Below, piece by piece: positions 47,048 through 64,000 of a stretch of DNA of 64,000 nt. Under the pieces are notes generated by a model. That model searched no databases. It saw only the letters and a program-made list of their open reading frames with translations, and had not been told where the DNA came from. This DNA is from an uncultured cyanobacterium (GTDB taxonomy: Bacteria > Cyanobacteriota > Cyanobacteriia > Leptolyngbyales > Leptolyngbyaceae). Made by a program: the position numbers and the translations under genes. Positions within the stretch are counted from its first letter, which is position 1, and each line of letters begins with the position of its first letter. The stretch covers positions 1 through 64,000 of the forward strand of contig CAVYAN010000008.1 of NCBI GenBank assembly GCA_963766075.1, in the 5' to 3' direction.

Positions 47048-47777
47048 ATATTCTTGGCTCATATTTTTCAAAAAAAAACATTCCCCTGCTGCATGAGGAT
47101 TTCGATTTCCTTACAAATGACGACGATTTAGAGAAGCTTATCTATTTATTGTCAGAGTTTGGGAAGTATGCTCGATATCACAATCTCGACGTAGTTACTT
47201 CAGCAGCAAAACCTAGCATTAATGTTAAACAATTGTGGGAGGAATATGAGAGTAACCTTATTACCTCAAACCCTGAAATTTTAGAGAAATTGGGAAACTT
47301 GGAAGCCACAGAAGAAGTGATAAGTTATACAAAACGACAAATTCTGATTAAACTAGAAAAGTTCACTCGGGCTATTTGTCGACAATTCACAATTGGTCAA
47401 CCAGGGAAAAAAGCCTTGCAATATTCCCCCACTTTATACAAATTTATACTTCTTAAAGATGAAGACTTAGGTAACCAGAATTATCGGTTAGAAACAACTA
47501 GATATCAAAAAAGAACAGAAGGTTCATCAGCGAACACTAGTTAACGAGCTTCAGCGAACATATAATCCTCGTTATCGTTATGCAATTGTTAGAAAAGAGA
47601 ATTTTGATGGAGACTGGCCCTTCTACCATGATGAGGTAACTATCGAGTGTCGTGAAAGATATTGGTGTGTGGTGACTATTGAGAATAAGGATTATGCCTT
47701 AAATGGATCTGCCGCAGGACGATATAAACTTGAAAGTGCACATGATGCTGGTATGGCAATTTTAGGAAAGTCTTGTG
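47048..47777 (+). pseudogene. AT-rich hypothetical gene truncated by IS elements at both ends, with a frameshift at ~47510
   Basis: ORF 47149..47544 continues in another frame (…NFDGDWPFYHDEVTIECRERYW…YALNGSA) up to the ISKra4 end. Confidence 0.65.
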
Positions 47778-48996
47778 GGGAGCATCTCACCTTTGCAATG
47801 AGCATAAATGCTTAGTGATAATTTCATCGAAATACGACAAAATTGAGTCACTGATTTGAGGCTTTGCCGCCATGACGCCTGAAGAATTACAAAAAATAGA
47901 ATACCATGCCAACCAAATTGCCCAAATTCTCTATTCTGATACGGATCCGAAAGTGATTCAGACCTTGGGGGATATTGAAACTACCGTTCGTCAGCAAATC
48001 CTGCAGCATGTCAGCCCTCCTATCGGTGTTTTTTTGTCAAAAATGCCACCGAAATCGAAACGGGAAGAAAGCGAAACATCAAAACAACAATCGGGAATCT
48101 TGAAATCACGGAACGTCAAGCCCAACACCTCAATGTAAAACCCTATACTCAAATCAGTGAGCACTTAGAAAACTGCTGTCTACTCGTGAGTGCAAATAGC
48201 TCTTATGCACGTTCACAAGAAGATTTAGCAATTCTAATGGGAATAGATATTTCTCATAGTACTCATCATAGATTAGTGAATCGTCAGGAATTTAAGGGAA
48301 TCATTTCTGAAACCACTATTGAATCAATGAGTTTAGATGGCGGAAAAGCTAGAATCCGCACCCCCAAGGGTGAAGTGTCTATTTACAAAGATTACAAAGC
48401 CGTGGTTTTAGAAGGTCAAGGGATCGGGGGATATTTCCAAAAAAATGAGGCGTTGATTGATTGGGTCAATAGCCAACCCTTAGCCACCACGGTTTCCTGT
48501 TTAGGCGATGGGCATGATGGGATTTGGAATGTATTTCGTGCGGTGGCGGTTCCAGAACAGCGGCGTGAAATTCTGGATTGGTACCATTTGGTCGAGAATT
48601 TGCACAAAGTGGGTGGCTCGAACAATCGCTTAAATCAGGTGGAAGCCTTGTTATGGACTGGCAAAGTCGAGGCGGCGATGGCGCTGTTCTCCGATTGCAC
48701 TCTTGATACCGTGCCCAATTTCATCACCTATCTGACCAAGCATCGGCATCGGATTCCGAATTATGACTATTTACAGTCAGAAGGATTCACCATTGGCTCG
48801 GGTGGCGTGGAATCTGGAATTAAACAAATTAGTCGCCGGGTGAAAATTTCAGGAGCACAATGGGAGGCGAAGAATGTCGATCAAGTCGTAAAACATCGGT
48901 GTGCCTACCTAAATGGTCAATTTTCAACGCATTTTCAGCTTTCCAGGGCGATATGATCACAAGTATTTCTACTCATCGCAAAGGTGAGATGCTCCC
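47778..48996 (+). mobile_element. ISKra4-family IS, copy 1 (ORFs 47872..48138 and 48186..48956)
   Basis: 19-bp IR GGGAGCATCTCACCTTTGC; LDGG, LGDGHDGIW, LDWYHL, IGSGGVES. Confidence 0.92.
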
Positions 48997-49205
48997 TACA
49001 GAAATGCCTATTTCGCCAAGATTGTCTGCACAAGTCAGTGCAAATAAGAGAGCTTATAAAATTCTCTTATTTGTGCTTTATTAGCGTTCCACATCCCCTT
49101 TTCGTCGGCTTGCTTGGTGTTTTTTTAGTACGGCAGCTGAGCCGTGCCCAAGAGTGAGCGGCAAATTTCAGTTTGTAACCCTCAAACCTCGCAAAGAGTC
49201 CTAAC

Positions 49206-49451
49206 ATGATGGAGTTATATCAAGAAGTCGCATTACCTTGCGACTTACCAGAGTGTGGACTGAGAGCTGGAGATGTCGCAATATTGGTTGATTTTGTTCC
49301 CTATCCGAGCGATGGCGAAGGGGGCTGTGTGCTGGAAGTCTTTAATGCGATCGGTGAATCTTTTGAAGTGATTGCTGTCCCAATCTCTGTAGTAGAAGTT
49401 CTGCGCCCGGATGAAATTTTAACAGTCCGCCCCCTAGCAAAAGCGAGTTAA
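49206..49451 (+). CDS. DUF4926-like small protein
   Basis: LYQEVAL..DLPE.GLRAGDVA..VD...LEVFNAIGE pattern, recognised from memory. Confidence 0.75.
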   Translation: MMELYQEVALPCDLPECGLRAGDVAILVDFVPYPSDGEGGCVLEVFNAIGESFEVIAVPISVVEVLRPDEILTVRPLAKAS

Positions 49452-49477
49452 TGTTCAAAAGTATAATAGCTGTGGTG

Positions 49478-49564
49478 GTCTAACAAATCGTTGCAACGGC
49501 GGAATTAAGGATGGTTGGTAGAGATGCCAAAACTTATCGCCGCTGCTGAACTCAATCGTTATGC
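49478..49564 (+). other. Integron attC-like recombination site 1
   Basis: R'' GTCTAAC, 5 nt, L'' GTTGCAAC ... L' GCTGAAC, 6 nt, R' GTTATGC; inner GGCGG/CGCC stem. Confidence 0.75.
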
Positions 49565-49632
49565 CGCTCAGTTTACCGTTGAGGCAATAAAATGCAAGCT
49601 GTCTCTTTAAGCAAATCTTCAATATCTATTGG

Positions 49633-50247
49633 TCACCTTTTCACTAAATAAGATGACAGCATAGCCATAATTTCTTGTTCAAGTTCTCCATTGTTCAACA
49701 GTTCCGGACGATCAAGCATCGCCCCATGACTGAGCGCTTTAATCGTCCGCCCAACTATGAAAACAGTTAAATCTAGATTTTTAGGTTGAAGTTGATTGCA
49801 TCGATGCGCCATAAACGATCGCAGCATTTTTTCCATCCTTTCATCATCTAGCTGTCGCATCTCCTCACTGCGGGGAATCTGTTCATGTAGAACGCGATGG
49901 AGCTTAGGATTCACGGCATGAGCCGCCAACGCCGCTTTGACAATCTGCTGAAGCACATCAATGATAGAGCTATCTTCTAGCCCTGCTAAATGCTGCTGAG
50001 CTATCTGCGCCATTTCATTGGCATAATGTTCCGTCAAAGCAAAAATCAGAGATTCCTTATTCGGAAAATATTGATACAGTGAGCCGATACTTACGCCTGC
50101 CAGTTCGGCTACTCGATTTGTGGTGAGATGGTCGTATCCTTTTTCGGTCAAAATGTGAGTCGTTGCCGTGAGAATGGCTTCAACGGTCGCTTGAGAACGT
50201 TCCTGTTTTGGTAGTTTACGCGGTGTGGCTGGGGGCTTATGTGGCAT
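49633..50247 (-). CDS. TetR/AcrR-family regulator
   Basis: TTNRVAELAGVSIGSLYQYFPNKE HTH. Confidence 0.93.
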   Translation of the reverse strand: MPHKPPATPRKLPKQERSQATVEAILTATTHILTEKGYDHLTTNRVAELAGVSIGSLYQYFPNKESLIFALTEHYANEMAQIAQQHLAGLEDSSIIDVLQQIVKAALAAHAVNPKLHRVLHEQIPRSEEMRQLDDERMEKMLRSFMAHRCNQLQPKNLDLTVFIVGRTIKALSHGAMLDRPELLNNGELEQEIMAMLSSYLVKR

Positions 50248-50366
50248 GAGTAAGTATCAAAAAAATGCGAGTTGTCAGGCGATCGCGATCGCTCGTAAAG
50301 TATGAGTAATCATTCACATTATACGCAGTGAGTCTCACCGCTTGCAGCGCCACAGGAGTACTATTC

Positions 50367-51641
50367 ATGCGTATTGCGATTATTGCGCTGGGATCTCGCG
50401 GCGATGTTCAACCCTATATTGCTTTAGGCAAGGGCTTGAAAACAGCGGGGCATTACGTCCGATTGATAAGCCATGAAAACTTTGAACAACTGGTTAGTTC
50501 TCATGACCTAGAATTCTGGTCAGCTAAGGGTGACGTGCAAGAAATCATGGAAAGTCCAGAAATGCGCGATCTATTGGAAAAAGGGAATTTTCTTGCTATT
50601 ACAGCGTATACGGCAAAAGCATCCAAACAAGCGGCGATTGACTGGGCGCACGATGGGTTAGCCGCTTGTCAGGGCATGGAATTGCTGCTTGCAGGCGTGG
50701 GTGGGCTGTTTCTAGGTCTTGCCCTTGCCGAAAAATTAAAGCTGCCCTTGCTTCAGGCATATGTCTTTCCCTTTACGCCAACATCAGTTTTTCCCGCTCC
50801 CCTTTTCCCTCAGTTTGTATCCAAACTCGGCGGATATGTGAATCGGTTGTCTCATCATTTATTCCGACAGATCATGTGGCAGGGGTCTCGCACGGGCGAT
50901 GGGATAGCACGACAGCAAGTTCTGGGCTTGCCCGCCGCCCCATTTTGGGGACTCTACAATTCACCCCCGCTCCAGCGCTATTCAATTCTCTATGGTTTCA
51001 GTCCGTCCATAATCCCTAAACCATCAGATTGGCGTAATACCCATGTCACTGGCTATTGGTTCTTGGATGAGGCACCTAATTGGACTCCACCAGCAGCCTT
51101 GGTGGAGTTTCTGCAAAGTGGCTCGCCGCCTGTGTATGTTGGGTTTGGAAGTATGAGGAGTCAAAATCCAGAAGAAACGGCAGATCTAGTCTTAAAAGCG
51201 ATCTCTCTCACGGGGCAACGCGCCATATTGCAATCGGGTTGGGGTGGTCTGAATAAGAACCATTTACCAGATACAGTTTTTATGGTGGATTCAATCTCCC
51301 ATTCATGGCTCTTCCCACGTGTCGCGGCTGTCGTCCATCATGGTGGTGCTGGGACAACAGCCGCTGGACTCAGAGCGGGAGTTCCGACCATCGTAATTCC
51401 GTTCTTTGGCGATCAGCCCTTTTGGGGACAGCGCGTTGCAGAATTAGGGGTTGGACCAAAACTGATTCCTCGCAAAAAACTAACGGCTGAAAGACTTGCA
51501 GAAGCGATTCACATCGCGATGACCAATCGATCGATGCGTCAGTGTGCAGCCAAGCTAGGGGCGAAAATTCGAGCCGAAGATGGTATTGCCAGTGCGGTTG
51601 CCATCGTAAAGGAAATCGAAAAGCGTGGGGTTAACTACTGA
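50367..51641 (+). CDS. GT1 (sterol-3-beta-glucosyltransferase-like) UDP-glycosyltransferase
   Basis: GSRGDVQPY, VVHHGGAGTT, PFFGDQPFW. Confidence 0.92.
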   Translation: MRIAIIALGSRGDVQPYIALGKGLKTAGHYVRLISHENFEQLVSSHDLEFWSAKGDVQEIMESPEMRDLLEKGNFLAITAYTAKASKQAAIDWAHDGLAACQGMELLLAGVGGLFLGLALAEKLKLPLLQAYVFPFTPTSVFPAPLFPQFVSKLGGYVNRLSHHLFRQIMWQGSRTGDGIARQQVLGLPAAPFWGLYNSPPLQRYSILYGFSPSIIPKPSDWRNTHVTGYWFLDEAPNWTPPAALVEFLQSGSPPVYVGFGSMRSQNPEETADLVLKAISLTGQRAILQSGWGGLNKNHLPDTVFMVDSISHSWLFPRVAAVVHHGGAGTTAAGLRAGVPTIVIPFFGDQPFWGQRVAELGVGPKLIPRKKLTAERLAEAIHIAMTNRSMRQCAAKLGAKIRAEDGIASAVAIVKEIEKRGVNY

Positions 51642-51675
51642 CAATTTGGATTCTGTTATTAATCCCAAAATAACT

Positions 51676-52230
51676 ATGTCATTAGAAATCATTCTCATTG
51701 GTCCCATCGGTGCTGGCAAATCTAGTGTCGCTGAGCTTTTAAGCAGTCGGCTGAGTCTTCCACAACAATCAATGGATGAACGACGCTGGGACTACTACAA
51801 GGAAATTGGATATGACGAAGATCTGGCAAAGCACAAAAGAGAAACCAAAGGATTCCGGGAAGTTTATCAATATTGGAAGCCTTTTGAAGCATATGCTGTG
51901 GAAAGACTGCTATCGGAGCATCACAATTGTGTCATTGATTTTGGTGCGAGTCACTCTGTTTATGAAGATGTTGCTTTATTTCAGAGGGTTGAGTCAGTGT
52001 TAGCCCCATATCCCAATATTGTTCTTCTACTTCCATCTCCTGATTTAGATGAGTCGATACGGATACTGAATGAGCGGAATGATTATATATCCGATAGCAG
52101 TTCCAATATCAATGAATATTTTGTCAGGCATCCTTCAAATCATAAGCTTGCAAAATTTACGACTTACACGAAGGCAAAGGCAATAGAAGAAACTTGCAAT
52201 GAAATTTTGAGTCTGACAGGCACGGCGTAA
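51676..52230 (+). CDS. Shikimate-kinase-like P-loop kinase
   Basis: IILIGPIGAGKSS, VIDFGA; stop codon lies inside an attC R'' box. Confidence 0.8.
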   Translation: MSLEIILIGPIGAGKSSVAELLSSRLSLPQQSMDERRWDYYKEIGYDEDLAKHKRETKGFREVYQYWKPFEAYAVERLLSEHHNCVIDFGASHSVYEDVALFQRVESVLAPYPNIVLLLPSPDLDESIRILNERNDYISDSSSNINEYFVRHPSNHKLAKFTTYTKAKAIEETCNEILSLTGTA

Positions 52231-52313
52231 CAACGCCCATGCACACCGACCGCCGAGAGTCGATTGGTTATGATGTAAAGGTTACTAGCGGCGGGTAATG
52301 GGCAACGTTATGC
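52225..52313 (+). other. Integron attC-like recombination site 2
   Basis: R'' GCGTAAC ... GCCCAT(G)CAC/GTAATGGGC stem, CCGCCG/GCGGCGG ... R' GTTATGC. Confidence 0.75.
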
Positions 52314-52360
52314 TGTCGGCATTGTATGCTTTTCTGTAATTCTAAGGCGCTAGATCATCC

Positions 52361-53551
52361 TTGCTAAAAGTAATCATCATTGGGGGTGGAATTGGGGGAT
52401 TGACCCTGGCGCGTGCCTGTTTAGATGTAGGCATTGCGGTCGAGCTCTATGAAAAGCGCCCGCTGAATGCAATGCTGTCAGGACCGGGTGGCATTTTCAT
52501 TCAGCGAAACGCCCTGCGGGTCTATAAGCTCCTGTGGGGAGGAAAAATATACGATCGCCTCTCCCAGCAAGGCGGAACCATTCTGAAAGGCGGCTTCTTC
52601 AGTAAAAGCGGCGAACCGCTCTACATCAATTCCCCGCAATTTGTTCAAGAAGATAACCTGGGGATTTGTTTACTGCGAGCAGAGTTGCAGCAAATTCTCT
52701 ACACAGCGCTGCCAGAAGGTACGGTCCGCCCTGGATATGCCTTCGAGGGCTTTGAAGAGCAGGGAGACAGTCTACGCGTTGTCTTTCGGGACGGCAGCAG
52801 CACAGAAGGAGACATCCTTGTTGGTGCCGATGGGCTGTATTCTACCGTGCGGGCTCGTCTGAGTGGCAAAGACCGATTGGAGCCTCCCATCTATAGCGGC
52901 ACGTGCTGTTGGCGAGGCTATTTTGATGGGACTGGGTTACCCCTAGATGACCAATACAGTTGGGCAGAATTTTGGGGGCAGGGCGATCGCTTTGGTTATT
53001 TTGATGTCGGCTCCGGGCGCTGCTCCTTTTATGCCTTTGCCAACGTGGCTGCGGGGGGAAACGATGACAGTGCGGGCGGGGCGTTAAATGCGTTGAAATC
53101 TCGGTTTTCTGGCTATGCCAGTCCAGTGCCCGCCATTCTCGAAGTGCTGGCTGACCAGCCGATCTACCGAGATGACATCTATGATCGCATCCCCCTGGGA
53201 CGGGAATGGGGCCATGGACGGGTCACACTCATTGGCGATGCCGCACATCCGGTGCAACCCAGCATTGGTCAGGGGGGATGCATGGCGATTGAAGACGCTT
53301 TTGAAGTGGCGAAGCGGCTGTCTACGCAGGGACAGGAAGATGCCGTTCCAGTGTTGTTGCGCCAGTTTGAAGCGAGCCGCAGCGATCGCATCGCCCGTGT
53401 GTTCACCACTGCCCGCCAGGTCGGTCAGTTAGGGCAGGCGGAGGGCGCGATCGCCTGTTTTCTCCGCAACTGGATCTATAAACTTACCCCCACCCGACTG
53501 GCTGATCAACAGTTCAAATGGCTATTTGATTACGTTCCACGCTGGGATTAG
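52361..53551 (+). CDS. FAD-dependent monooxygenase (aromatic hydroxylase / zeaxanthin-epoxidase-like fold)
   Basis: GGGIGG, LVGADGLYS, LIGDAAHPVQPSIGQGG. Confidence 0.9.
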   Translation: MLKVIIIGGGIGGLTLARACLDVGIAVELYEKRPLNAMLSGPGGIFIQRNALRVYKLLWGGKIYDRLSQQGGTILKGGFFSKSGEPLYINSPQFVQEDNLGICLLRAELQQILYTALPEGTVRPGYAFEGFEEQGDSLRVVFRDGSSTEGDILVGADGLYSTVRARLSGKDRLEPPIYSGTCCWRGYFDGTGLPLDDQYSWAEFWGQGDRFGYFDVGSGRCSFYAFANVAAGGNDDSAGGALNALKSRFSGYASPVPAILEVLADQPIYRDDIYDRIPLGREWGHGRVTLIGDAAHPVQPSIGQGGCMAIEDAFEVAKRLSTQGQEDAVPVLLRQFEASRSDRIARVFTTARQVGQLGQAEGAIACFLRNWIYKLTPTRLADQQFKWLFDYVPRWD

Positions 53552-53641
53552 GTGAGCACTGGGATGCAGTGAGCTAGGCTACCGACCAGATAGCGCGGGT
53601 ATAGAGCGGGTCGGCTAGTCCGCAAGATGGCTGGCCACCGT

Positions 53642-55216
53642 TTACCAATCGTCGTCGTCATCGATTTCGGTCGTCGGTGGGCTGGGATGGCTGGCGGGTG
53701 GTATTGGACTCCACAGGGGCGATCGCTCCGCGGCCCGTGGCAATGCGTTGGGCGGTACGCCATAGGGCGGCGGCACCAATTCCAACTGCGGGGCTGCCTT
53801 TTTCGCAGACTTTTTCGTTGCTTGATAGGGCTGATTATGCCGTCGCCGGGAAACGTTTTCTTCGCTCGTATCTTCAGCGATCACTTCGTAGAGCATGGCC
53901 AACTTATCGGGATCGTTTCCGCGCCGCAGCACGCGCCCCAAACGCTGAATATGTTCGCGGGTGGATCCCGTGCCCGAAAGCACGATCGCCACCTTGGCAT
54001 CGGGGACATCCACGCCTTCATTCAGCACCCGCGAAGCCACCAAAGCGCGGTACTGCCCCTGCTTAAACTGGGTAAGAATGTCATGGCGTTCCTTGACGGC
54101 GGTTTGGTGGGTGATGGCGGGAATCAGGAGTTCCTGGGAAATGCGATAGACCGTGGCATTGTCATCGGTGAAGATCAGGGTGCGATCGGGGTGGTGCTTG
54201 GCCAGGAGGTCAGCCAACACCCGCAATTTGCCAGCGGTGCCAAAGGCAATGGCCCGAGCTTCTCGATGGGCCAGCATGGCACGGCGTCCGGCTTTGGATT
54301 GGGCGCTGGCTTGGACAAAGCGCTGCCAGCCCTGCACCGATCCCAGAAAGATCTTGGCGCTCTGGAGAAATTCATTGCGCTGGGCGATCAGCTGATCGTA
54401 GCGATCGCGCTCCTGGGGCGACAGCCGCACCTTAATTTGCACCGCCTCATGGTTGGCCAAGGCACCGCCCGCTAGATCCTCGGCCCGCTTGCGATAGACC
54501 TCCGGGCCGATCAGCGTGGCCAGATCGGCGTGCTTGCCGTCGGTGCGTTCGGGGGTGGCGGTGAGGCCTAGGCGATAGGGCGCGATCGCATACTCCGCAA
54601 TCACCCGATTAAAGTCACTGGGCAAATGATGGCACTCGTCAAACACCAGGAGGGCGTACTGATTGCCCAGGGTTTCGGCATGGATGGCGGCACTGTCGTA
54701 GGTGGCTACCAAAATAGCGGTGCGATCGCGGGAACCGCCCCCCAACAGGCCAATCTCCGCATCGGGAAACGCCGCCACTAAATGGGCATACCACTGGTGC
54801 ATCAAATCCAGGGTGGGCACCATGATCAGGGTGCTGTGCTGGGTGGCTTGCATAGCCAGTTGAGCCAGATAGGTTTTGCCCGCAGCGGTCGGCAAAATCA
54901 CGACGCCGCGTTGCTGAGACTGTTTCCAGGCATCCAGGGCCTCCTGCTGGTGGGGATAGGGCACCATTTCCACACTGGGCACCAGGGCCACTTCTCGAAA
55001 GGCTTTGGCTTTATCGGTGATTTCGGTGCTCGATTCGCGACAGGAGCGCAGGACTTCAAGGTAGCGCAGGGCGGGAATGCGGAAGCGTTCGACTCGATCA
55101 TCCCAGGCGGCGTAGTCCATCCAGGCTTTGCCTCGGGGCGGTGGATGCAGAATCAAGGTGCCGCGATCGTAGGTCAACGTGGGAGTGCGAGCCATTACCC
55201 TGGTCCGGTAGGTCAA
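53642..55216 (-). CDS. SF2 DEAD/DEAH helicase (XPB/Rad25-like)
   Basis: LPTAAGKT, DECHH, LTATPER, EGVDVP, QRLGRVLR. Confidence 0.9.
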   Translation of the reverse strand: MTYRTRVMARTPTLTYDRGTLILHPPPRGKAWMDYAAWDDRVERFRIPALRYLEVLRSCRESSTEITDKAKAFREVALVPSVEMVPYPHQQEALDAWKQSQQRGVVILPTAAGKTYLAQLAMQATQHSTLIMVPTLDLMHQWYAHLVAAFPDAEIGLLGGGSRDRTAILVATYDSAAIHAETLGNQYALLVFDECHHLPSDFNRVIAEYAIAPYRLGLTATPERTDGKHADLATLIGPEVYRKRAEDLAGGALANHEAVQIKVRLSPQERDRYDQLIAQRNEFLQSAKIFLGSVQGWQRFVQASAQSKAGRRAMLAHREARAIAFGTAGKLRVLADLLAKHHPDRTLIFTDDNATVYRISQELLIPAITHQTAVKERHDILTQFKQGQYRALVASRVLNEGVDVPDAKVAIVLSGTGSTREHIQRLGRVLRRGNDPDKLAMLYEVIAEDTSEENVSRRRHNQPYQATKKSAKKAAPQLELVPPPYGVPPNALPRAAERSPLWSPIPPASHPSPPTTEIDDDDDW

Positions 55217-55475
55217 TCTGTTTCCGAGTATGCCGTACTTTGTCGGCGATTTCGTTGCTATTTCTGTGCAACTTGGACGAGGAAAGAATGGGGACGGGTA
55301 TGTTAAGGTATATAAATAATTATCTTTATGAAATCTATTCGGGTTTTGCCTAGAGGTTCTCGGCTTTTTTGCTCCGCCTGCTTTTGCGCCCTGCTCCGTT
55401 CACTCAACGTTGTCCTTAAATACGCCTTTAATCGCTGGTTTTGTCTGACCTGTACCCTAGAGTGATCCCGTTAGC

Positions 55476-56258
55476 ATGGTTTCCCCGATTGCCGAAGGCA
55501 GCTCCCTGTCCTCCTTCCCGGAGGCTTTTCCCTCTGAACTTTTCGTCCTCCGCCAACGTACCCAGTGGTTGGGTTTAGCGATCGCACTGCTGATTCTCAC
55601 GGTCTGGTTAGCCAGCACTGTGGTGCTGTTACGGTGCAATATTTCCCAGTGGCACCCGTTGGGACGATATCTCGCGACGGCATGGCAAACATTTTTGTAC
55701 ACGGGCCTGTTTATTACGGCCCATGATGCGATTCATGGGGTGGTAGTGCCGCAGCATGCGCGGATTAATCGGGTGATTGGGGCGATCGCCCTGTTCGCCT
55801 ATGCCATGTTTCCCTATGCCCAAATTGCCCAGCGGCACTGGCTGCACCACCAGCACCCCGCGAGTTCACGGGATCCGGATTTTCACAATGGCACCCATCG
55901 GCACTGGCTGTTGTGGTACCTGTACTTTATGTTCCGTTACTGGAGTTGGCTGCGGTTTATTGCCTTAGCGACGACCTATAACCTGATGTTTCGCTTGCTC
56001 CAGATTCCGGAAGCCAATTTGGTGGCCTTTTGGGTGCTGCCGCCGTTACTCAGCTCGTTGCAGTTGTTTTATTTCGGTACCTATTTGCCCCACCGCCAAC
56101 CCGTGGGGGGCTATACCCATCCGTCGCGGGCGGAAACGATTCGGCGCTCTTGGTTCTGGTCGTTTGTGACCTGTTATCACTTTGGTTATCACCGCGAACA
56201 CCATGACTATCCCTTGGTGCCCTGGTGGTTGTTGCCGACGGTGGGGCGCTTGGGCTGA
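55476..56258 (+). CDS. crtW: Beta-carotene ketolase
   Basis: TGLFITAHDAIHG, HWLHH...DPDF, GTYLPH, CYHFGYHREHH. Confidence 0.88.
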   Translation: MVSPIAEGSSLSSFPEAFPSELFVLRQRTQWLGLAIALLILTVWLASTVVLLRCNISQWHPLGRYLATAWQTFLYTGLFITAHDAIHGVVVPQHARINRVIGAIALFAYAMFPYAQIAQRHWLHHQHPASSRDPDFHNGTHRHWLLWYLYFMFRYWSWLRFIALATTYNLMFRLLQIPEANLVAFWVLPPLLSSLQLFYFGTYLPHRQPVGGYTHPSRAETIRRSWFWSFVTCYHFGYHREHHDYPLVPWWLLPTVGRLG

Positions 56259-56300
56259 ATCGTTCCACTACAATCTAAGGAACTCCTTGGCTGATTTGGA

Positions 56301-56846
56301 ATGAATGCTGATTGCGATCGCCTGACTCGTTGGTCTGCTGCGCTCTGTGCCTTGGCGACTTTCCCGACCCTGTGGATCTTTGGTCTGATTGTGGCGCTGT
56401 TTGGGGTGACGATTTTTCAATCTATGGATTTTAACGAATTCTATGGATTGACGGGGGTGACGCTGAATATTGGTGGGGCCTGGGTGATCATGGTGGCTTT
56501 AGCCGGAATCAATTACTGGATCGGCATGTGGCTGGCGCATCAGTATTGGCGGGCGGTGCGACGGCAGCACCCTTTGGTGCAGTGGTATGCGGATGCTGCC
56601 CAGAAATTTCAGCGGAGTCTGTGGCGGTATACGCTGATTTCGATGCTGTTGTGGACGCTGCTGCTGATGACGATGTGCGGAATTGGTCCGACCCAGATTG
56701 ATGAGGTCTATGGGGTGGCGATCGCAGCGTTTCTTTGGCTAGCGGCGCTCGGCGTTTTCAATGGGGTGGTTACGGTGTTTGCGGCGGTGCGGGCGCTGAG
56801 GGGACAGGTTTATCACTATCCTGGGGCGACGGCGGTTTTGCAGTGA
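56301..56846 (+). CDS. Hypothetical membrane protein (about 4 TM)
   Basis: Hydrophobic ORF downstream of crtW. Confidence 0.7.
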   Translation: MNADCDRLTRWSAALCALATFPTLWIFGLIVALFGVTIFQSMDFNEFYGLTGVTLNIGGAWVIMVALAGINYWIGMWLAHQYWRAVRRQHPLVQWYADAAQKFQRSLWRYTLISMLLWTLLLMTMCGIGPTQIDEVYGVAIAAFLWLAALGVFNGVVTVFAAVRALRGQVYHYPGATAVLQ

Positions 56847-57015
56847 GAGGATGTTTTAAAAGTCCTGCTGTTGGTAGCAAAAGTCTGGATCCCCCTAAAT
56901 CCCCCTTAAAAAGGGGGACTTTCAATCCGGTTCCCCCTTTTTTAAGGGGGGCTAGGGGGGATCTCCGGGATCGTTGAGTGCCTAACATCACATTTGAAAC
57001 CTTTAAAACGTCCCC
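56847..57015. mobile_element. 169-bp MITE-like element with an internal hairpin repeat
   Basis: IR GAGGATGTTTTAAAAG / CTTTAAAACGTCCCC, flanking TGA duplication, internal CCCCCTTAAAAAGGGGG palindromes. Confidence 0.75.
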
Positions 57016-57030
57016 TGAGGACAGGCGGGG

Positions 57031-57375
57031 CTAAAAGGCGGCTTCATCGGTGAGGGTTTCAATCAGCAAGTCCACCTGCTGCTGACGCTGGCTCAAAAAT
57101 TCTTCGCACTGCTGGAGATAGTCCACGGCCTGGGCGAATTGGTCAAAGACGGCTGCGAGCTCTAGCTCGCCGGACTCAATCCGGGCGACGATCGCTTCCA
57201 CCTGCTGGACTGTCGTTTCATAGTTCCAGCCGTCGGCCACGGGCGGCAGCATCGGCTCGACATCCGGCGACAGGGCTTTCTGCGATCGCGCCTGAGATTT
57301 GGATTGGGATTTTGCCTGAGACTGGGAAGATTGACTCACCGAAGGTTCCACTGCGAATCGCCTAACAGGTTTCAC
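57031..57375 (-). CDS. xseB: Exodeoxyribonuclease VII small subunit
   Basis: [22 protein letters not shown]...LQQCEEFL. Confidence 0.85.
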
Positions 57376-57599
57376 TTGATTTACTGTACCAGTGTAGCCC
57401 TCTTGAGGGGTAGCTTTTGGCCCAGCCGCAGGGCTTCCTTCCTCGCGTTGATGCTGGGTTCACAGGGGCGATCGCCCGTGCTGAAGATCGGCGCAAAACT
57501 CCACGCTGGGCAGGCGGCGGGGTCAGCCCTGCGATCGCTCTCTGGACTGGGCAGGGGACTGATCTGCAGGGCGGCTGTTTTCCCTGGCCATCCCTTGGA

Positions 57600-58979
57600 C
57601 TAGGCGTTAAACGTTAAGGCGTGACCTCGAACCTGCTGATTAAATTGGCCGCGATCGTAGACCACCTGCCCCCCTACAATCGTCACCACTGGCCAGCCCG
57701 TCAAATTCCAGCCCTCAAAGGGACTCCAGCCACACTTGGTCTGCAATTCTTCCCGCAGGACCGGATGGTACGTGTCTAAATCCACTAGGACGAGGTCGGC
57801 ATCGTAACCAGGGGCGATCGCGCCCTTGCCGACAATTCCATAGGCTTTTGCCACCGCCGTGGACATCCACTGGGAAACTTGCGCGACGCTACAGCGCCCC
57901 TGCATCGCCTGGGTCAGCATCAGCGGCAGCGAGGTTTCCACTCCTGGCATGCCCGAAGGCACCTTAGCGGGCTCTAGAAAAACGGTTGCCGAAGTCGCCT
58001 CTTCATCGGCAGGCTTGGCGGACTGCGCCTGCCCCTTTTCGGCCAGGGTATGGGGCGCATGATCGGTGGCAATGAAGTCGATCACGCCATCTTGCAGGGC
58101 TTGCCACAGCACTGCGTTGTCGTGGGTGCTGCGAATCGGCGGGTTCATTTGAATCAGGGATCCCAGCTTTTTGTAGTCGCCCGTATTCAGCAGCAGATGC
58201 TGAGGTGTGACTTCTGCGGTGACCCAAGCAGGCTTGTCCTGACGCAGCAGTTCGGCTTCTTCGGCGGTGGACAGGTGCAGAATATGCAGCCGTCGCTGAT
58301 ATTTTTTCGACAGTTTGAGTGCCAGTTGGGTGGCATTGAGTGCGGCTTGATTGTCTTGAATCACGGAATGGATGGCTGGATCGGTGTTGCCAGCAAATTC
58401 CTGTCGCCGTTGGGCGATCCGCGCTTGGTCTTCGGCATGGACGGCGATCAGGCGGGTGCCGGTGGCAAAAATGCGATCGAGGGCGGCTTCTTGATCCACC
58501 AGCAGATCACCATGCATCGACCCCATGAAAATCTTGATGCCGGGGGTGGGCGTTGCGGTTTGCAGATCTGGTAAGTTGGCAGCGGTAGCGCCGATAAAAA
58601 AGCCGAAGTTGACAAACGACTTCTGGGCGGCGCGGGCCAGTTTATCGTTGAGGGCCGCCTGGTTGATGGTCAGCGGCTTGGTGTTGGGCATTTCTAAGAA
58701 GGATGTGACGCCGCCACGGGCACAGGCGCGGGAGGCGGTGGTGAGGTCTTCTTTGTGCTCTAATCCCGGTTCCCGAAAGTGGACTTGGGGGTCAATGACG
58801 CCGGGGAGTAGGGTGAGCTGGTTGGCCTCGATGACGGTATCGGCTGCGCGCTCTAGGTTGGGACCAATGTCTTGAATCACGCCGCCTTCAACCCACACAT
58901 CGGCGGATTCAAAGTGGCCATTGGGGAGTAAGACCCTAGCGTTGCGGATGAGTAATGTGGCGGCGGGGGATGAGGACAT
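57600..58979 (-). CDS. pyrC: Dihydroorotase (amidohydrolase family)
   Basis: DPQVHFREPG, EMPNTKP, HAED, MNPPIR, ATDHAPH, KCGWSPF. Confidence 0.9.
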   Translation of the reverse strand: MSSSPAATLLIRNARVLLPNGHFESADVWVEGGVIQDIGPNLERAADTVIEANQLTLLPGVIDPQVHFREPGLEHKEDLTTASRACARGGVTSFLEMPNTKPLTINQAALNDKLARAAQKSFVNFGFFIGATAANLPDLQTATPTPGIKIFMGSMHGDLLVDQEAALDRIFATGTRLIAVHAEDQARIAQRRQEFAGNTDPAIHSVIQDNQAALNATQLALKLSKKYQRRLHILHLSTAEEAELLRQDKPAWVTAEVTPQHLLLNTGDYKKLGSLIQMNPPIRSTHDNAVLWQALQDGVIDFIATDHAPHTLAEKGQAQSAKPADEEATSATVFLEPAKVPSGMPGVETSLPLMLTQAMQGRCSVAQVSQWMSTAVAKAYGIVGKGAIAPGYDADLVLVDLDTYHPVLREELQTKCGWSPFEGWNLTGWPVVTIVGGQVVYDRGQFNQQVRGHALTFNA

Positions 58980-59233
58980 GGTGAACCAGGAGAGAGACTG
59001 CTTCCATCATAGGAAATTTCGGTTGCGTACCATTCTAATCAGCGCGATTATGCCGATAACGGACTGATCTCGTCGTTCCGCAACGGCCAGTCTCAGGGTA
59101 TCTGTATCTAAGCTCTCTGGTTCGAGTGGCGGACCATAACGGGTAATCAAGCTTTTCCAGTAATGACCTGCATTGAGATCCATGGGTGAACTCCTAAAGC
59201 AGTGAGTCAGTGGGAATGAGAAAACAGAATTCT

Positions 59234-60862
59234 TTACCAGTTACCACCAGCACCACCGCCATCGCTACCGCCACCGCCAAAGTCAGAACTGCTGCTGCTC
59301 GACGTATCAGGATAGTAATTGGGTTCGTAGGTGCTGCTGGATGAGGAACTTGCATCAGAGGAAGTGCGCGATCGCCCACTTGTTTCAGAACCAGAAGATG
59401 GCGATGGACGATAAATCCGGGCGATTTGCAGATGAGTACTTTCCCGATTGATGGCCGCATTACAGGTTGGGCAGTGCCAGCCACAAATTTTGACATCCTT
59501 AGCGGCTGGAGAGGTTCGTTGTTTCGATGTGAGCAGGGGTTCTAGCTGTTCGGGCTGTAAAAGGTTGAGAGCGGTGCGGTGGCGATCGCAACAAAACGCT
59601 TGATGTTGTATACGGTAGCGTAAACTATCCCGTTCAAACGCTTGCAACAGCTTCCCGCTGAGCAAAATGCTGCATCCTGCCGTCAGCCCAGCCGCCTGTA
59701 TTGGCCGCTGAATCCACCCCCCAAAGTCTCGGAGCGGAAACCAACCCAGGCTACTAGCAAACCCCACTAGGACAAACAGTAACACCACCGAGGCGAGGAA
59801 GGATGACACCACGTCTCCCCAGTCAGGCTGAATCACCTCCTGCAGCACAGGCAGGAAACGTCGCTTATTGATCAGCCAATCCATGATGAACTTCAAGAGA
59901 CCGCCAAAAATCAGCAAGGCGGCTAGGATCGGAATCAGCAAGCTGAGCCCAAAAATTTGGCCCCCCCAGTAGCGGGTGGCGGTTAAGATCATAAAGGTGA
60001 GGCTATAGAGAATAACGGCGATCGTAATTAGAGTTGGTGCCAAAAATAGCCCCGTAAATTTACGCTCTGGATGCTCACCCACCCAGGTTTGAACATCTTC
60101 TTGACGAAGAACATCCCGTCGCGTTTGCTGTTCTCCCATCTGAAGTGGTGTAAGTTGGCGCGATCGCCAGGTCAAAAGCCCACATATTCCCAGCAAGCCC
60201 ACAATTCCTCCGCCCAGCAATTCCCAAATTACCGGGGGGATGACAAACTGCCGGAGGCGATCGGCATTGTTCCGAATTTCGTCTGCGAGTTGCTGGGTTA
60301 CCTGGATAATTCCACCTGCATAGTCCTCCTGGCGAAAACGGGGGACTATCACCGTTTCAATCAGCGTGGCAACTTGGGCATCTGGCAGAATGTTGGCGGT
60401 TCCTCGTCCGGTTTCAATTTCAACTCGGCGATCGTCGCGGGAGACCAGGATCAGCAGTCCATTGTCTTGAGTGGCTTTGCCAATGCCCCAGGTATTAAAT
60501 AGTTCTGTGGCAAAGGCTTTGGGCGAAGCTGCTGGATCGGTCGTTGGCACTGTGACGACAGTTAACTCAGCTTGCGTATCGGCTTCCAGATCGGTCGCAA
60601 TTTGATTAATCTGGACTTCAGCCTCAGGTGAGAGCAATGCTGCCATGTCAGTCACCCAGCCTCCTGAGGTCTGACGGGGGTTGGGAACGTCTTGAACAGT
60701 AATTGCCGTAGCAATGGGAGCCCAACTGAACCACAGCAATATCATTAAGCAGATGCCTATAACCAAACGAACAGATGGTTTGAATAGACCTGGTAACTGC
60801 ATGGGGAAGTATAAAAATGAATATGGTGATTGGCTATGCTCGTAGTCTAACCTCTCTGACAT
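59234..60862 (-). CDS. TPM-domain (YgcG-like) membrane protein; likely start 60802
   Basis: VTDMAALLS, FNTWGIG...NGLLILV...RRVEIETG; C-terminal FGGGGSDGGGAGGNW. Confidence 0.88.
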   Translation of the reverse strand: MSERLDYEHSQSPYSFLYFPMQLPGLFKPSVRLVIGICLMILLWFSWAPIATAITVQDVPNPRQTSGGWVTDMAALLSPEAEVQINQIATDLEADTQAELTVVTVPTTDPAASPKAFATELFNTWGIGKATQDNGLLILVSRDDRRVEIETGRGTANILPDAQVATLIETVIVPRFRQEDYAGGIIQVTQQLADEIRNNADRLRQFVIPPVIWELLGGGIVGLLGICGLLTWRSRQLTPLQMGEQQTRRDVLRQEDVQTWVGEHPERKFTGLFLAPTLITIAVILYSLTFMILTATRYWGGQIFGLSLLIPILAALLIFGGLLKFIMDWLINKRRFLPVLQEVIQPDWGDVVSSFLASVVLLFVLVGFASSLGWFPLRDFGGWIQRPIQAAGLTAGCSILLSGKLLQAFERDSLRYRIQHQAFCCDRHRTALNLLQPEQLEPLLTSKQRTSPAAKDVKICGWHCPTCNAAINRESTHLQIARIYRPSPSSGSETSGRSRTSSDASSSSSSTYEPNYYPDTSSSSSSDFGGGGSDGGGAGGNW

Positions 60863-60906
60863 ACGTCACTGGCATTTGTCTCACTGGCATTGGTCTCAAG
60901 AAAGCG

Positions 60907-62592
60907 TCACTTGAGGCAGCAATCATTCTTGTAAAGTAATTCAGCACTCCCATCAGGGCTGATATGGTAAATCTCCAGACAAAACTCACCTATACTCAGA
61001 GGTAGGAATGAGACACGGTTCTCCTGTCTGCCCTGCTCGCTGGTTTTGAGTAGCACACCTGGTTGACTGACAAAAGTCTGCAAGTCAATTCCTGATTACC
61101 TTAAACTCGAGTCGTTCCAAACGCTGTTCCCGTTGCCATCGCGAGGCAAAAGCCGGGTCCGGATCCTGGTCAGACTGGAGCGCGACCTGCGTAAATACCT
61201 TCCACCCGCGCACCGTGACACCCTTCATCCAATTCCAACCGATTTTGAGATAGCTACTGCCGCGCTGCCAATGGGGATCCACCTGTCGGCGCAACCCTGC
61301 CGCCACGACCGCCGTCCCTTGCAGCGTCAGAAACAACGTCGCCACCGCCACCACAAAACACAACCGCGACAAGGCGATGGCATCGCGCAGCATCGAGCGC
61401 TCCAATTCAAAGCCATTCGATTTGTCGTCCAAAAAGTTTTCCTCGATATCAAACCGTTTGCCATATTCGGCAAAGGTTTGCAGTGTCGTCGGTTCGCTGC
61501 TGAGAATGAACCAATTTTCAGGGGTGCCTGCGACTTTCGCCAAGGCCAAATGGACATCGCTGAGGGTCTTGGTTGTGTAGATGCGCACTTGCTGAAACAG
61601 CCGTGCTTCCCCAGCACTGAGATGATAGTCCTTGATTTGTCGCCAGCCCAGACCCGCTTGCCAAAACCAGAAATTTCCCTTCACCCGAATCCGATAGTGC
61701 CAGCCCAACTCCTGACGCACGTAGCGCATCAAATCCACATCCACAAAGCCCCGGTCGGCGAGCAATACCACTTTGACGCCCACAGGGAGTACCCCTGCCA
61801 CCCGCTTGAGCATGTCACGATAGACTGCCAGTTTGACACTACAACTCTTGTGCCGAATCACCCGCCAGCCTACCGGCACCGCCCGTCCCCGGTAAACCAC
61901 CGACACCCGAATGAGGCAGAACACATCCCACAGACTGCTGGTATCGAGGCTGAGGTACAGGCATGCCTCTTGCCAATCGCTCAATGCCGCTCGAATCAAG
62001 GGACCATACAACCGTGCCACGTTCAGCCGACTGTTGTGCAGCCATCGTCCGAACCGGCGCTGGGTGCTTTGGGCATACTGCGCTTTCGTCTCCACACGAC
62101 TAATCCAATGGGTCACATTCACCCGGCCTTCTTCCAAAAGACCAATCAGCATCCACACCAAGACCGCGATGTGGCGCACATCCTGCCAGGTGGATTGACT
62201 CACAAACTCCCACAATGGATGATAAAGGCGAGAGGCGTAGACGATTTTCATAATGGTCAATCTGATGTTTTTTGAACTAACAACAGATTAACGCCTCTTT
62301 CCTTGGTCTTCACACCTCAACACCCCTCTAGGCAAGATTTCCAGTCCTATTCCAAAAAGTTTTGTCAGTCAACCAGGTAGTTCACACAGTCTCTCAATCC
62401 TTCCAACCACATGAATGGGGGTTGGTCATCAATCAGTATTCTTCCAGCAACCACCAATCCAGAAAGTGGCTTGATCCCGCCTCCCACATCATCGACATAG
62501 GCAAAGAGAGGTTCTGGCTCTAGGAAAGCTGATAAATCAATCTTGAAGCCGACTCCCCCAGAGATGCTGACAACTTGGACTGGGTTGTCCAT
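60907..62592 (-). pseudogene. 121-aa hypothetical gene split by an IS4-family element
   Basis: Removing 61058-62377 joins …RDCVNY to VLLKTSEQG…CCLK* in frame. Confidence 0.6.
61058..62377 (-). mobile_element. IS4-family-like element (transposase 61085..62260)
   Basis: 18-bp IR CCTGGTTGACTGACAAAA; LSLDTS, LLADRGF, YGKRFDIEENFLDDK. Confidence 0.88.
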
Positions 62593-62625
62593 TTCACATC
62601 ACCTTCGCTTATTTAGCTCTTTACT

Positions 62626-62709
62626 GTCCAACAACCCCAATCACCCACCGCAGATGAACTTGAACTCCAATCGACAACCTCTCGGCGGTCGGTGTGCATT
62701 GAGATTGTT
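62626..62709 (-). other. Integron attC-like site 3, with its R'' box abutting the ISKra4 end
   Basis: Minus strand AAC-AATCTC-AAT(G)CAC...GGTGATT-GGGGTT-GTTGGAC; shares ATGCACACCGACCGCCGAGAG with site 2. Confidence 0.72.
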
Positions 62710-63928
62710 GGGAGCATCTCACCTTTGCGATGAGTAGAAATACTTGTGATCATATCGCCCTGGAAAGCTGAAAATGCGTTGAAAATTGACCATTTAGGTA
62801 GGCACACCGATGTTTTACGACTTGATCGACATTCTTCGCCTCCCATTGTGCTCCTGAAATTTTCACCCGGCGACTAATTTGTTTAATTCCAGATTCCACG
62901 CCACCCGAGCCAATGGTGAATCCTTCTGACTGTAAATAGTCATAATTCGGAATCCGATGCCGATGCTTGGTCAGATAGGTGATGAAATTGGGCACGGTAT
63001 CAAGAGTGCAATCGGAGAACAGCGCCATCGCCGCCTCGACTTTGCCAGTCCATAACAAGGCTTCCACCTGATTTAAGCGATTGTTCGAGCCACCCACTTT
63101 GTGCAAATTCTCGACCAAATGGTACCAATCCAGAATTTCACGCCGCTGTTCTGGAACCGCCACCGCACGAAATACATTCCAAATCCCATCATGCCCATCG
63201 CCTAAACAGGAAACCGTGGTGGCTAAGGGTTGGCTATTGACCCAATCAATCAACGCCTCATTTTTTTGGAAATATCCCCCAATCCCTTGACCTTCTAAAA
63301 CCACGGCTTTGTAATCTTTGTAAATAGACACTTCACCCTTGGGGGTGCGGATTCTAGCTTTTCCGCCATCTAAACTCATTGATTCAATAGTGGTTTCAGA
63401 AATGATTCCCTTAAATTCCTGACGATGCACTAATCTATGATGAGTACTATGAGAAATATCTATTCCCATTAGAATTGCTAAATCTTCTTGTGAACGTGCA
63501 TAAGAGCTATTTGCACTCACGAGTAGACAGCAGTTTTCTAAGTGCTCACTGATTTGAGTATAGGGTTTTACATTGAGGTGTTGGGCTTGACGTTCCGTGA
63601 TTTCAAGATTCCCGATTGTTGTTTTGATGTTTCGCTTTCTTCCCGTTTCGATTTCGGTGGCATTTTTGACAAAAAAACACCGATAGGAGGGCTGACATGC
63701 TGCAGGATTTGCTGACGAACGGTAGTTTCAATATCCCCCAAGGTCTGAATCACTTTCGGATCCGTATCAGAATAGAGAATTTGGGCAATTTGGTTGGCAT
63801 GGTATTCTATTTTTTGTAATTCTTCAGGCGTCATGGCGGCAAAGCCTCAAATCAGTGACTCAATTTTGTCGTATTTCGATGAAATTATCACTAAGCATTT
63901 ATGCTCATTGCAAAGGTGAGATGCTCCC
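62710..63928 (-). mobile_element. ISKra4-family IS, copy 2 (ORFs 63568..63834 and 62750..63520)
   Basis: Near-identical inverted copy of 47778-48996 with the same IRs. Confidence 0.92.
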
Positions 63929-64000
63929 TTTCTGTATCCTATTCTTGCCATTTCCAGGGCTTCTTCATAAGTCCACTGAGGCATGGGATCAAGGTCGGCA

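Follow-up and report, generated by a model that had tools for sequence, protein, structure and literature searches.

Integron attC sites and gene cassettes among insertion sequences on a contig of an uncultured Leptolyngbyaceae cyanobacterium

The window analysed here, the first 64,000 nucleotides of contig CAVYAN010000008.1 (C8) in the assembly of an uncultured Leptolyngbyaceae cyanobacterium (GCA_963766075.1), holds three hairpins that are genuine integron attC sites, set among cassette-type genes, insertion sequences (ISs) and a block of housekeeping genes (Table 1). Sites 1 and 2 lie on one strand and site 3 on the other, so that two arrays converge on the housekeeping block. A sequence-only reading of the window had described three imperfect palindromes as attC sites of gene cassettes damaged by ISs. 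It had placed them correctly (site 3 ends at 62713; the 62709 given there is its AAC), and the attC identity, the cassette nature and the IS damage are all supported. It was also right about a 21-nt core common to sites 2 and 3 (their longest common stretch), the kinase stop codon within R'' of site 2 and the open reading frames (ORFs) that start shortly past sites 2 and 3 (TTG 52361 after 48 bp and ATG 62592 after 34 bp, respectively). A motif that occurs at 1.37 per kb in the genome, which we take to be HIP1, fits a cyanobacterial host, as does the gene content.

Table 1. Features of the window discussed in the text (aa, amino acids; GC, guanine plus cytosine fraction; E, expectation value; G/TT, the point of recombination)
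Feature	Position	Strand	Remarks
131-aa low-GC ORF	47149..47544	+	segment GC 0.37 vs genome 0.535
DUF2511-like ORF, severed by left ISKra4 copy	47576..47777	+	PF10709 E 0.0036, below cut-off
ISKra4, left copy	47778..48996	+	NF033572 214 bits, cut-off 205
8-bp target duplication TACAGAAA and final 16 codons of DUF559-like gene	48997..49047	+	beside left ISKra4 copy
5'-truncated DUF6883/DUF4926 cassette	49160..49451	+	tail of first gene and DUF4926 gene (49206-49451)
attC site 1	49478-49564	+	R'' GTCTAAC, R' GTTATGC
Three-gene cassette, 2.75 kb	49559..52307	+	G/TT of site 1 to G/TT of site 2
TetR-family regulator	49633..50247	-	PF00440, PF17918; divergent from glycosyltransferase
Glycosyltransferase	50367..51641	+	GT28 N-terminal, EryCIII-like C-terminal
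P-loop kinase-like gene (AAA_18)	51676..52230	+	stop codon TAA (52228-52230) inside R'' of site 2
attC site 2	52225-52313	+	R'' GCGTAAC, R' GTTATGC
FAD monooxygenase	52361..53551	+	PF01494; no attC downstream; GC 0.55, host-like
Housekeeping block	53642..58979	.	XPB-like helicase, crtW, DUF4870, xseB, amidohydrolase
TPM-domain membrane protein	59234..60862	-	comes after attC sites in G022 as well
IS4-family transposase	61085..62260	-	NF033591 above cut-off; inserted behind 75-aa ORF
75-aa ORF	62365..62592	-	begins 34 bp past site 3; no family found
attC site 3	62626-62713	-	R'' = ISKra4 end and AAC; R' GTTGGAC
ISKra4, right copy	62710..63928	-	inverted relative to left copy
Second TACAGAAA copy and body of DUF559-like gene	63929..64000	-	gene extends to C8:67504

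All three sites carry the AAC and GTT cores of RYYYAAC/GTTRRRY boxes. R'' of site 1 matches the consensus in full and that of site 2 deviates at one base; in site 3, for which a complete box had been proposed, the AAC stands, but the last four bases ahead of it are the terminus of the ISKra4 element. An iterated profile gave 24 genome matches at E < 1e-3; against the reversed genome it gave a single match, with an E of 3. A leave-out profile built from seven attC sites that neighbour intI elsewhere, in other genomes, recovered sites 1, 2 and, weakly, 3 in a search of the window (E of 1.7e-7, 6.2e-5 and 0.024, respectively), while nothing in the reversed genome reached E ≤ 1; run genome-wide, it missed site 3. 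A covariance model from 24 sites, the window sites being part of its training set, found 29 genome sites at E ≤ 0.01; its strong matches within the window numbered exactly three. Bottom-strand pairing held in 90.4% of cells (28–44% in slid controls), and 70 cells were compensatory against 21.1 ± 3.7 after shuffling (0 of 500 shuffles), as counted with a structure derived from the same alignment. In this family one arm carries two or three extrahelical bases, the distal one being T in 20 of the 24 aligned sites; those of sites 2 and 3 are C, T and T, and site 1 lacks the distal T. Wobble pairs favour the bottom strand (24 G:T versus 9 A:C), and minimum energies the top strand in the three window sites (see below). 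Rfam at its gathering thresholds gave no match in the window, and promoter and terminator scans of 49000–53700 gave signal no higher than in shuffles. A rigid attC pattern search was abandoned as unspecific (94 matches; sites 2 and 3 missing among the matches listed). A palindromic intergenic repeat at 56844–57019, common to many relatives and several contigs, has no match to the attC model.

The model finds attC sites in 59 of the 60 relatives compared (120 were used for the kinase), among which there was no genome of the same genus. Among the matches listed, complete genomes show the same attC family as long arrays beside intI plus scattered singles. In G017 (L029; C1:2607000-2641000), arrays of many near-identical attC sites are spaced 308 bp, which suggests tandem amplification of one short cassette.

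One cassette of the window runs from site 1 to site 2 (GC 0.46), R' of site 1 agreeing at eight of nine bases with the complement of R'' of site 2. Genome-wide, an exact nine-base complement of R'' was found upstream of 4 of 25 sites, and on the other strand for 0 of 25. The cassettes ended by sites 1 and 3 have had their upstream ends cut: site 1 closes a truncated DUF6883/DUF4926 cassette that is 85.7% identical over 406 bp to a two-gene cassette on C2 (DUF4926 gene, PF16277 E 7e-5, below cut-off). Cassettes with the same genes were found in G010, G117 and on C2, and not in G006 and G067. The pair of TetR regulator and glycosyltransferase occurs at three loci of relatives, with attC on both sides in G010, attC at the end only in G009 and none in G006. 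The kinase, present in 4 of the 120 relatives, forms a single-gene cassette with attC on both sides in G117 and comes after an attC in G119; the other two kinase genomes have no scored attC. About 35 bases before attC in the G010 and G009 cassettes resemble the kinase end. The TetR–glycosyltransferase–kinase cassette is likely a fusion of two cassettes through loss of an internal attC, and we infer that the kinase was later lost from TetR–glycosyltransferase cassettes in some lineages.

Whether the FAD monooxygenase behind site 2 is a cassette is uncertain: its best relatives, in 9 of 60 genomes, are only 32–36% identical, and 1 of 11 distant homologue loci lies inside an attC array. The 75-aa ORF behind site 3 is likely a cassette whose end was removed by IS4. 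For the 131-aa ORF at the left, no convincing Pfam family was found; judging from the inversion described below, it was likely cassette cargo once upstream of site 3. The TPM gene may be an old cassette. With its upstream DNA included, it shares 78% DNA identity with G022, a genome of another family (L013:642-1160). The housekeeping block (GC 0.56–0.61 in the three genes measured; no attC by the covariance model) is non-cassette DNA between two arrays. In G003, an opposed attC pair (L012:327-412, 1394-1482) surrounds one gene immediately upstream of the same amidohydrolase gene, which in the window borders the second array; this locus may be a hot spot of insertion.

The absence of an integrase noted by the sequence-only reading holds for the 64-kb window, in which no integron integrase was matched, but not for the genome. 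The genome-wide search for IntI that it proposed yields one full integron integrase (C41:95200-96165; TIGR02249 464.6 bits, cut-off 265), which matches the solved integron integrase 2A3V over its full length (E 3e-86), near-ungapped across both the integron-specific insertion and the motifs HxxR, H and Y, which we take to be catalytic. On C41, attI and a first cassette adjoin intI with matching R'/R'' cores, as in a complete integron. Five C-terminal intI remnants are present in the genome; one of them, a 41-codon 3' remnant, lies at C8:67806-67928, 3.8 kb past the window end; no full intI is on C8. Integrases above the family cut-off were found in 30 of 61 genomes, the present one included. 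A comM/YifB-like 3' fragment (C8:67679-67804; 79% to the C25 copy) is joined straight to the C8 remnant, the remnant at C31:37082 breaks at the same intI position, and 20/21-bp tandem repeats of variable copy number lie between the intI stop and a small-ORF repeat (C41:95078-95170, C8:67955-68164).

Over the whole genome, the 29 attC sites occupy 24 places, and 20 of these hold a single site (a number inflated by contig breaks). Scatter after core genes had been named as a finding that would speak against attC; the scatter is real, but the sites come after cassette-type genes and attI platforms, and no attC-type site was found at nine of nine helicase loci of relatives. Six attI-type box clusters were detected, against one in the reversed genome, with a motif built from five of the six (that on C37 was newly found); inspection by eye showed additional attI-like repeats, of other types, on C17, C22 and C31. 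The platforms on C17, C31 and C65 have a common intI deletion junction and 89–93% mutual identity, followed by different first cassettes. This junction (C17:164677, C31:99565, C65:49077) is a short imperfect palindrome, and it suggests a template-switch origin and then duplication of the deleted platform. C37 and C65 begin with identical sequence behind differing attI types (with an ORF-less cassette on C65), which suggests cassette exchange between platforms. Among the genes carried by other platforms are those for a cytosine methylase accompanied by an HNH nuclease, for an AbiA-like reverse transcriptase and for a NucS-like protein; several cargoes resemble anti-phage genes. The small-ORF repeat, which carries a 75-aa ORF and stands at the intI 3' end, occurs in 21 genome places. 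Co-oriented attC sites lie within 7 kb of 9 of the 21 copies and opposed ones of none, compared with a mean of 0.26 and a maximum of 4 in 20,000 random placements; the 7-kb limit was set after the distances were known, and for seven copies the contig ends less than 7 kb downstream.

The order of the window as assembled points to a rearrangement. The two ISKra4 copies are 99.8% identical and inverted, differing at a few bases. The 8-mer TACAGAAA stands after the left copy and before the right copy, the two halves of the duplication being split between them; other copies of the element (C29, C31) have 8-bp duplications on both sides. The DUF559-like gene severed at 63929 resumes in frame at 48997, and the frame is open across the join (247 codons). 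The gene ends as its homologues do (matching YRN-Y motif), and its start (C8:67504) has 57% identity to the start of a homologue. IS630 and IS66 interrupt this gene, and its start lies 300 bp from the intI remnant. The split duplication and the split gene indicate that the segment 49.0–62.7 kb is inverted, either in the chromosome itself or merely as assembled. When the three IS events are undone, sites 1 and 2 lie, by arithmetic, ~1.8 kb from the intI remnant and divergent, as on C41, with site 3 still opposed to them. We infer that before the inversion site 3 came after the left-hand low-GC ORFs, across an ISKra4 copy without duplication. ISKra4-type ends lie inside attC in 3 of 28 cases (C8:62710, C31:32620, C95:39029) and within 1.7 kb of attC in 12 of 28; on C95, an attC arm is split by a miniature ISKra4-type element of ~190 bp, which has a 9-bp duplication. 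Site-specific targeting of attC by ISKra4 was considered and rejected, the three insertions being at differing positions.

We are fairly confident that the three attC sites represent two small facing arrays that were scrambled by ISs, and we predict that they can still be recombined in trans by the one intact IntI of the genome. IntI would bind the folded bottom strand of each site and recombine it at G/TT; recombination of site 1 with site 2 would excise the TetR–glycosyltransferase–kinase cassette as a 2.75-kb circle, and the circle could then enter any attI platform of the genome. The ISKra4 event that inverted 49.0–62.7 kb would likely have moved sites 1 and 2 off the intI remnant that they originally adjoined.

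Several observations weigh against this interpretation. No excised circle was seen; the one metagenome considered (a share of 0.06) contained pieces of other organisms alone. The extra G described in L'' is present on the top strand, and the first extrahelical base of the bottom strand is consequently C, as in 23 of the 24 aligned sites, where G is usual (PMC5027507). Folding of the bottom strand, a check that the sequence-only reading had suggested, is weak for sites 1 and 2 in isolation (z of -1.0 and -2.0 relative to base shuffles; site 3, -2.9), and the minimum energy is lower on the top strand in all three sites. No attI-like cluster lies across C8:43-70 kb, so that a complete integron is lacking there, and the stretch from the intI remnant to site 1 contains a comM-like fragment as well as a gene that is not cassette-like; the link to the remnant is therefore solely one of distance and orientation. 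The left ISKra4 copy and site 3 have no common target duplication, so that one has to suppose an additional deletion that reached the AAC of site 3. Finally, the assembly (126 contigs) has a completeness of 84.9%, and near-identical IS copies of 1.2 kb are open to mis-joining.

The window arrays could instead never have been attached to a platform, IntI having put the cassettes at secondary chromosomal sites (attG), which would yield small integrase-less clusters and single sites, with the intI remnant nearby by coincidence; we regard this as unlikely. Such an insertion route is on record (10.1101/2022.09.11.507474), and it would suit the preponderance of single sites (20 of 24 places), the lack of an attI close to the window (C8:43-70 kb) and a cassette on C95 that has an exact core match and no attC or attI found ahead of its start. 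The count of singles is, however, inflated by contig breaks, sites 1 and 2 return to within ~1.8 kb of the remnant in the divergent layout of the C41 integron once the IS events are undone, and the repeat that bears intI ends is followed by co-oriented attC at 9 of 21 copies and by opposed attC at none.

We assign a similarly low likelihood to an inversion that exists only in the assembly, the flanks of the two ISKra4 copies having been swapped and the chromosome being un-inverted. Identity of 99.8% over 1.2 kb would allow such a swap, and the assembly is fragmented, with a repeat copy on C90 beside foreign-looking AT-rich genes. The contig nevertheless passes through each of the copies, between which a few bases differ, and IS-mediated inversion with split target duplications is an established process. 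Were the inversion an artefact, the identity of the attC sites would be unaffected and their link to the intI remnant would be stronger.

The sequence-only reading favoured a third arrangement, in which the three sites are the remains of one array, broken and partly inverted by IS activity. The 21-nt core of sites 2 and 3 and the ISKra4, IS4, IS66 and IS630 elements around the sites speak for it, but we find it improbable: site 3 is on the opposite strand, 10 kb off and across a 5-kb block of housekeeping genes, and the only inversion that can be read holds sites 1, 2 and 3 alike, so that site 3 is still opposed when it is undone. Sites on other contigs are 77–83% like site 2 over most of its length; the 21-nt core is therefore a trait of a subfamily. 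That the hairpins are ordinary repetitive extragenic palindromes or terminators can practically be dismissed: scatter over 24 places and presence in 59 of 60 relatives would fit, but no window attC hairpin is called as a terminator, none was found at the nine helicase loci of relatives, and the AAC/GTT cores, one-sided extrahelical bases, matches at cassette boundaries and, already contradictory by themselves, arrays beside intI do not.

The small-ORF family occurs in 10 of 60 relatives (41 matches in G037), and the 20 repeat regions sampled in G037, G045 and G014 contained no intI and one attC; the idea that the repeat is an obligatory part of integrons was accordingly rejected. Of 19 intI loci in relatives, 4 have a distant small-ORF member nearby. 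The repeat is free in those three genomes and has become tied to integron platforms in the present one. No Pfam family was found for the small ORF, and its Atlas neighbours are all unnamed (<0.9); at the repeat-bearing loci, Rfam at E ≤ 0.05 gave weak miRNA matches alone, far below cut-off. There is one copy per platform, the left flanks differ with no common end by eye, and terminal repeats or target duplications were not seen around the repeat, its flanks being judged by eye only. The G037 copies (L095-L108) have a conserved hairpin-rich upstream region with a fairly sharp end, and no transposase was seen beside those sampled. On C90 (L070:3137-5721), a repeat copy adjoins foreign-looking AT-rich genes that we take, from their sequence, to be ksgA-like and pcrA-like, and the contig is possibly chimeric. 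On C109 (L071:3308-5701), an AAA ATPase gene has an in-frame fusion to the initial 36 codons of the small ORF.

The repeat and the platforms may have spread through repeat-driven copying, recombination between copies or repeated acquisition of related islands. As a tentative and rather doubtful proposal, a dispersed repeat (an ORF of 65–90 aa with ~300 bp of conserved upstream DNA) may have become fused to a platform and, as a vehicle or homology anchor, be copying attI docking sites to many chromosomal places, some together with a deleted intI and some without, while one integrase loads and swaps cassettes in trans; the window array would then be a decayed node of a distributed non-autonomous network. 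Chromosomal integrons are usually pictured as a single fixed locus. If the repeat does multiply attI platforms for one integrase, this would be a third origin of orphan cassette clusters, beyond decay and insertion at secondary sites, and would make cyanobacteria, given integrases in 30 of 61 genomes, tractable for testing trans-acting cassette exchange.

The window holds a small cluster of attC sites lacking an integron integrase (CALIN) in ordinary decay, belonging to a system that is known in the phylum and thinly studied there. The CALIN label given by the sequence-only reading fits sites 1 and 2 in the present order of the sequence (same strand, a distance of 2.7 kb, no intI closer than 4 kb), but not site 3, which is single and opposed; its remark that cyanobacterial integrons are little studied is fair as to the depth of study, but integrons and an attC model from the phylum are already published. 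Cyanobacterial attC sites and CALINs are not new. Less ordinary is the repeat-linked layout of several platforms, with 29 attC sites in 24 places and six attI-like platforms. The window offers a well-resolved example of how a CALIN originates (intI decay and IS inversion) and of a multi-gene cassette built from smaller ones.

CALINs were defined as attC clusters without an integron integrase by Cury et al. 2016 (PMC4889954), who list Cyanobacteria as integron carriers, discuss mobilization in trans and name intI loss and rearrangement as origins. Like a CALIN in that sense, the window has a pair of attC sites on the same strand less than 4 kb apart, ISs around them and no intI near, with an intI elsewhere in the genome. 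Unlike a typical CALIN, it has an intI remnant 5 kb from site 3, with site 3 outside the cluster; intI pseudogenes lay near merely 15 of 279 CALINs in that work, and its 50% coverage rule would miss so short a remnant. Ghaly et al. 2021 (PMC8352920) built an attC covariance model specific to Cyanobacteria, and chromosomal attC sites of the phylum were therefore already known; the supplements of both studies may list arrays like these. We found no publication on cyanobacterial integrons specifically, on repeat-linked multiplication of platforms or on ISKra4 in attC, in a search that covered subscription journals thinly.

CALINs distant from intI are common in Xanthomonas (10.1101/2025.06.18.660453). 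The many single cassettes scattered over the chromosome also recall single attC sites lacking an integron integrase (SALINs) produced by attG insertion (10.1101/2022.09.11.507474), but many of the scattered sites here sit behind copies of integron platforms rather than at bare chromosomal sites. In anatomy, the sites resemble Vibrio cholerae repeats (VCRs) and attCaadA7 (Nivina et al. 2016, PMC5027507) in their RYYYAAC/GTTRRRY cores, unpaired spacers of 5–6 nt, one arm carrying two or three extrahelical bases with a distal T and length within 57–141 bp, and differ in the first bottom-strand extrahelical base, which is C here and usually G. The nearest parallel to the small-ORF repeat is the integron mobilization unit, in which a non-autonomous repeat, NFM2-MITE (a MITE, or miniature transposable element with inverted repeats), is likewise tied to integrons with a defective integrase (PMC3184786). 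There, however, paired MITEs with terminal inverted repeats flank the integron on both sides, whereas the small-ORF repeat stands on one side only and encodes a small protein.

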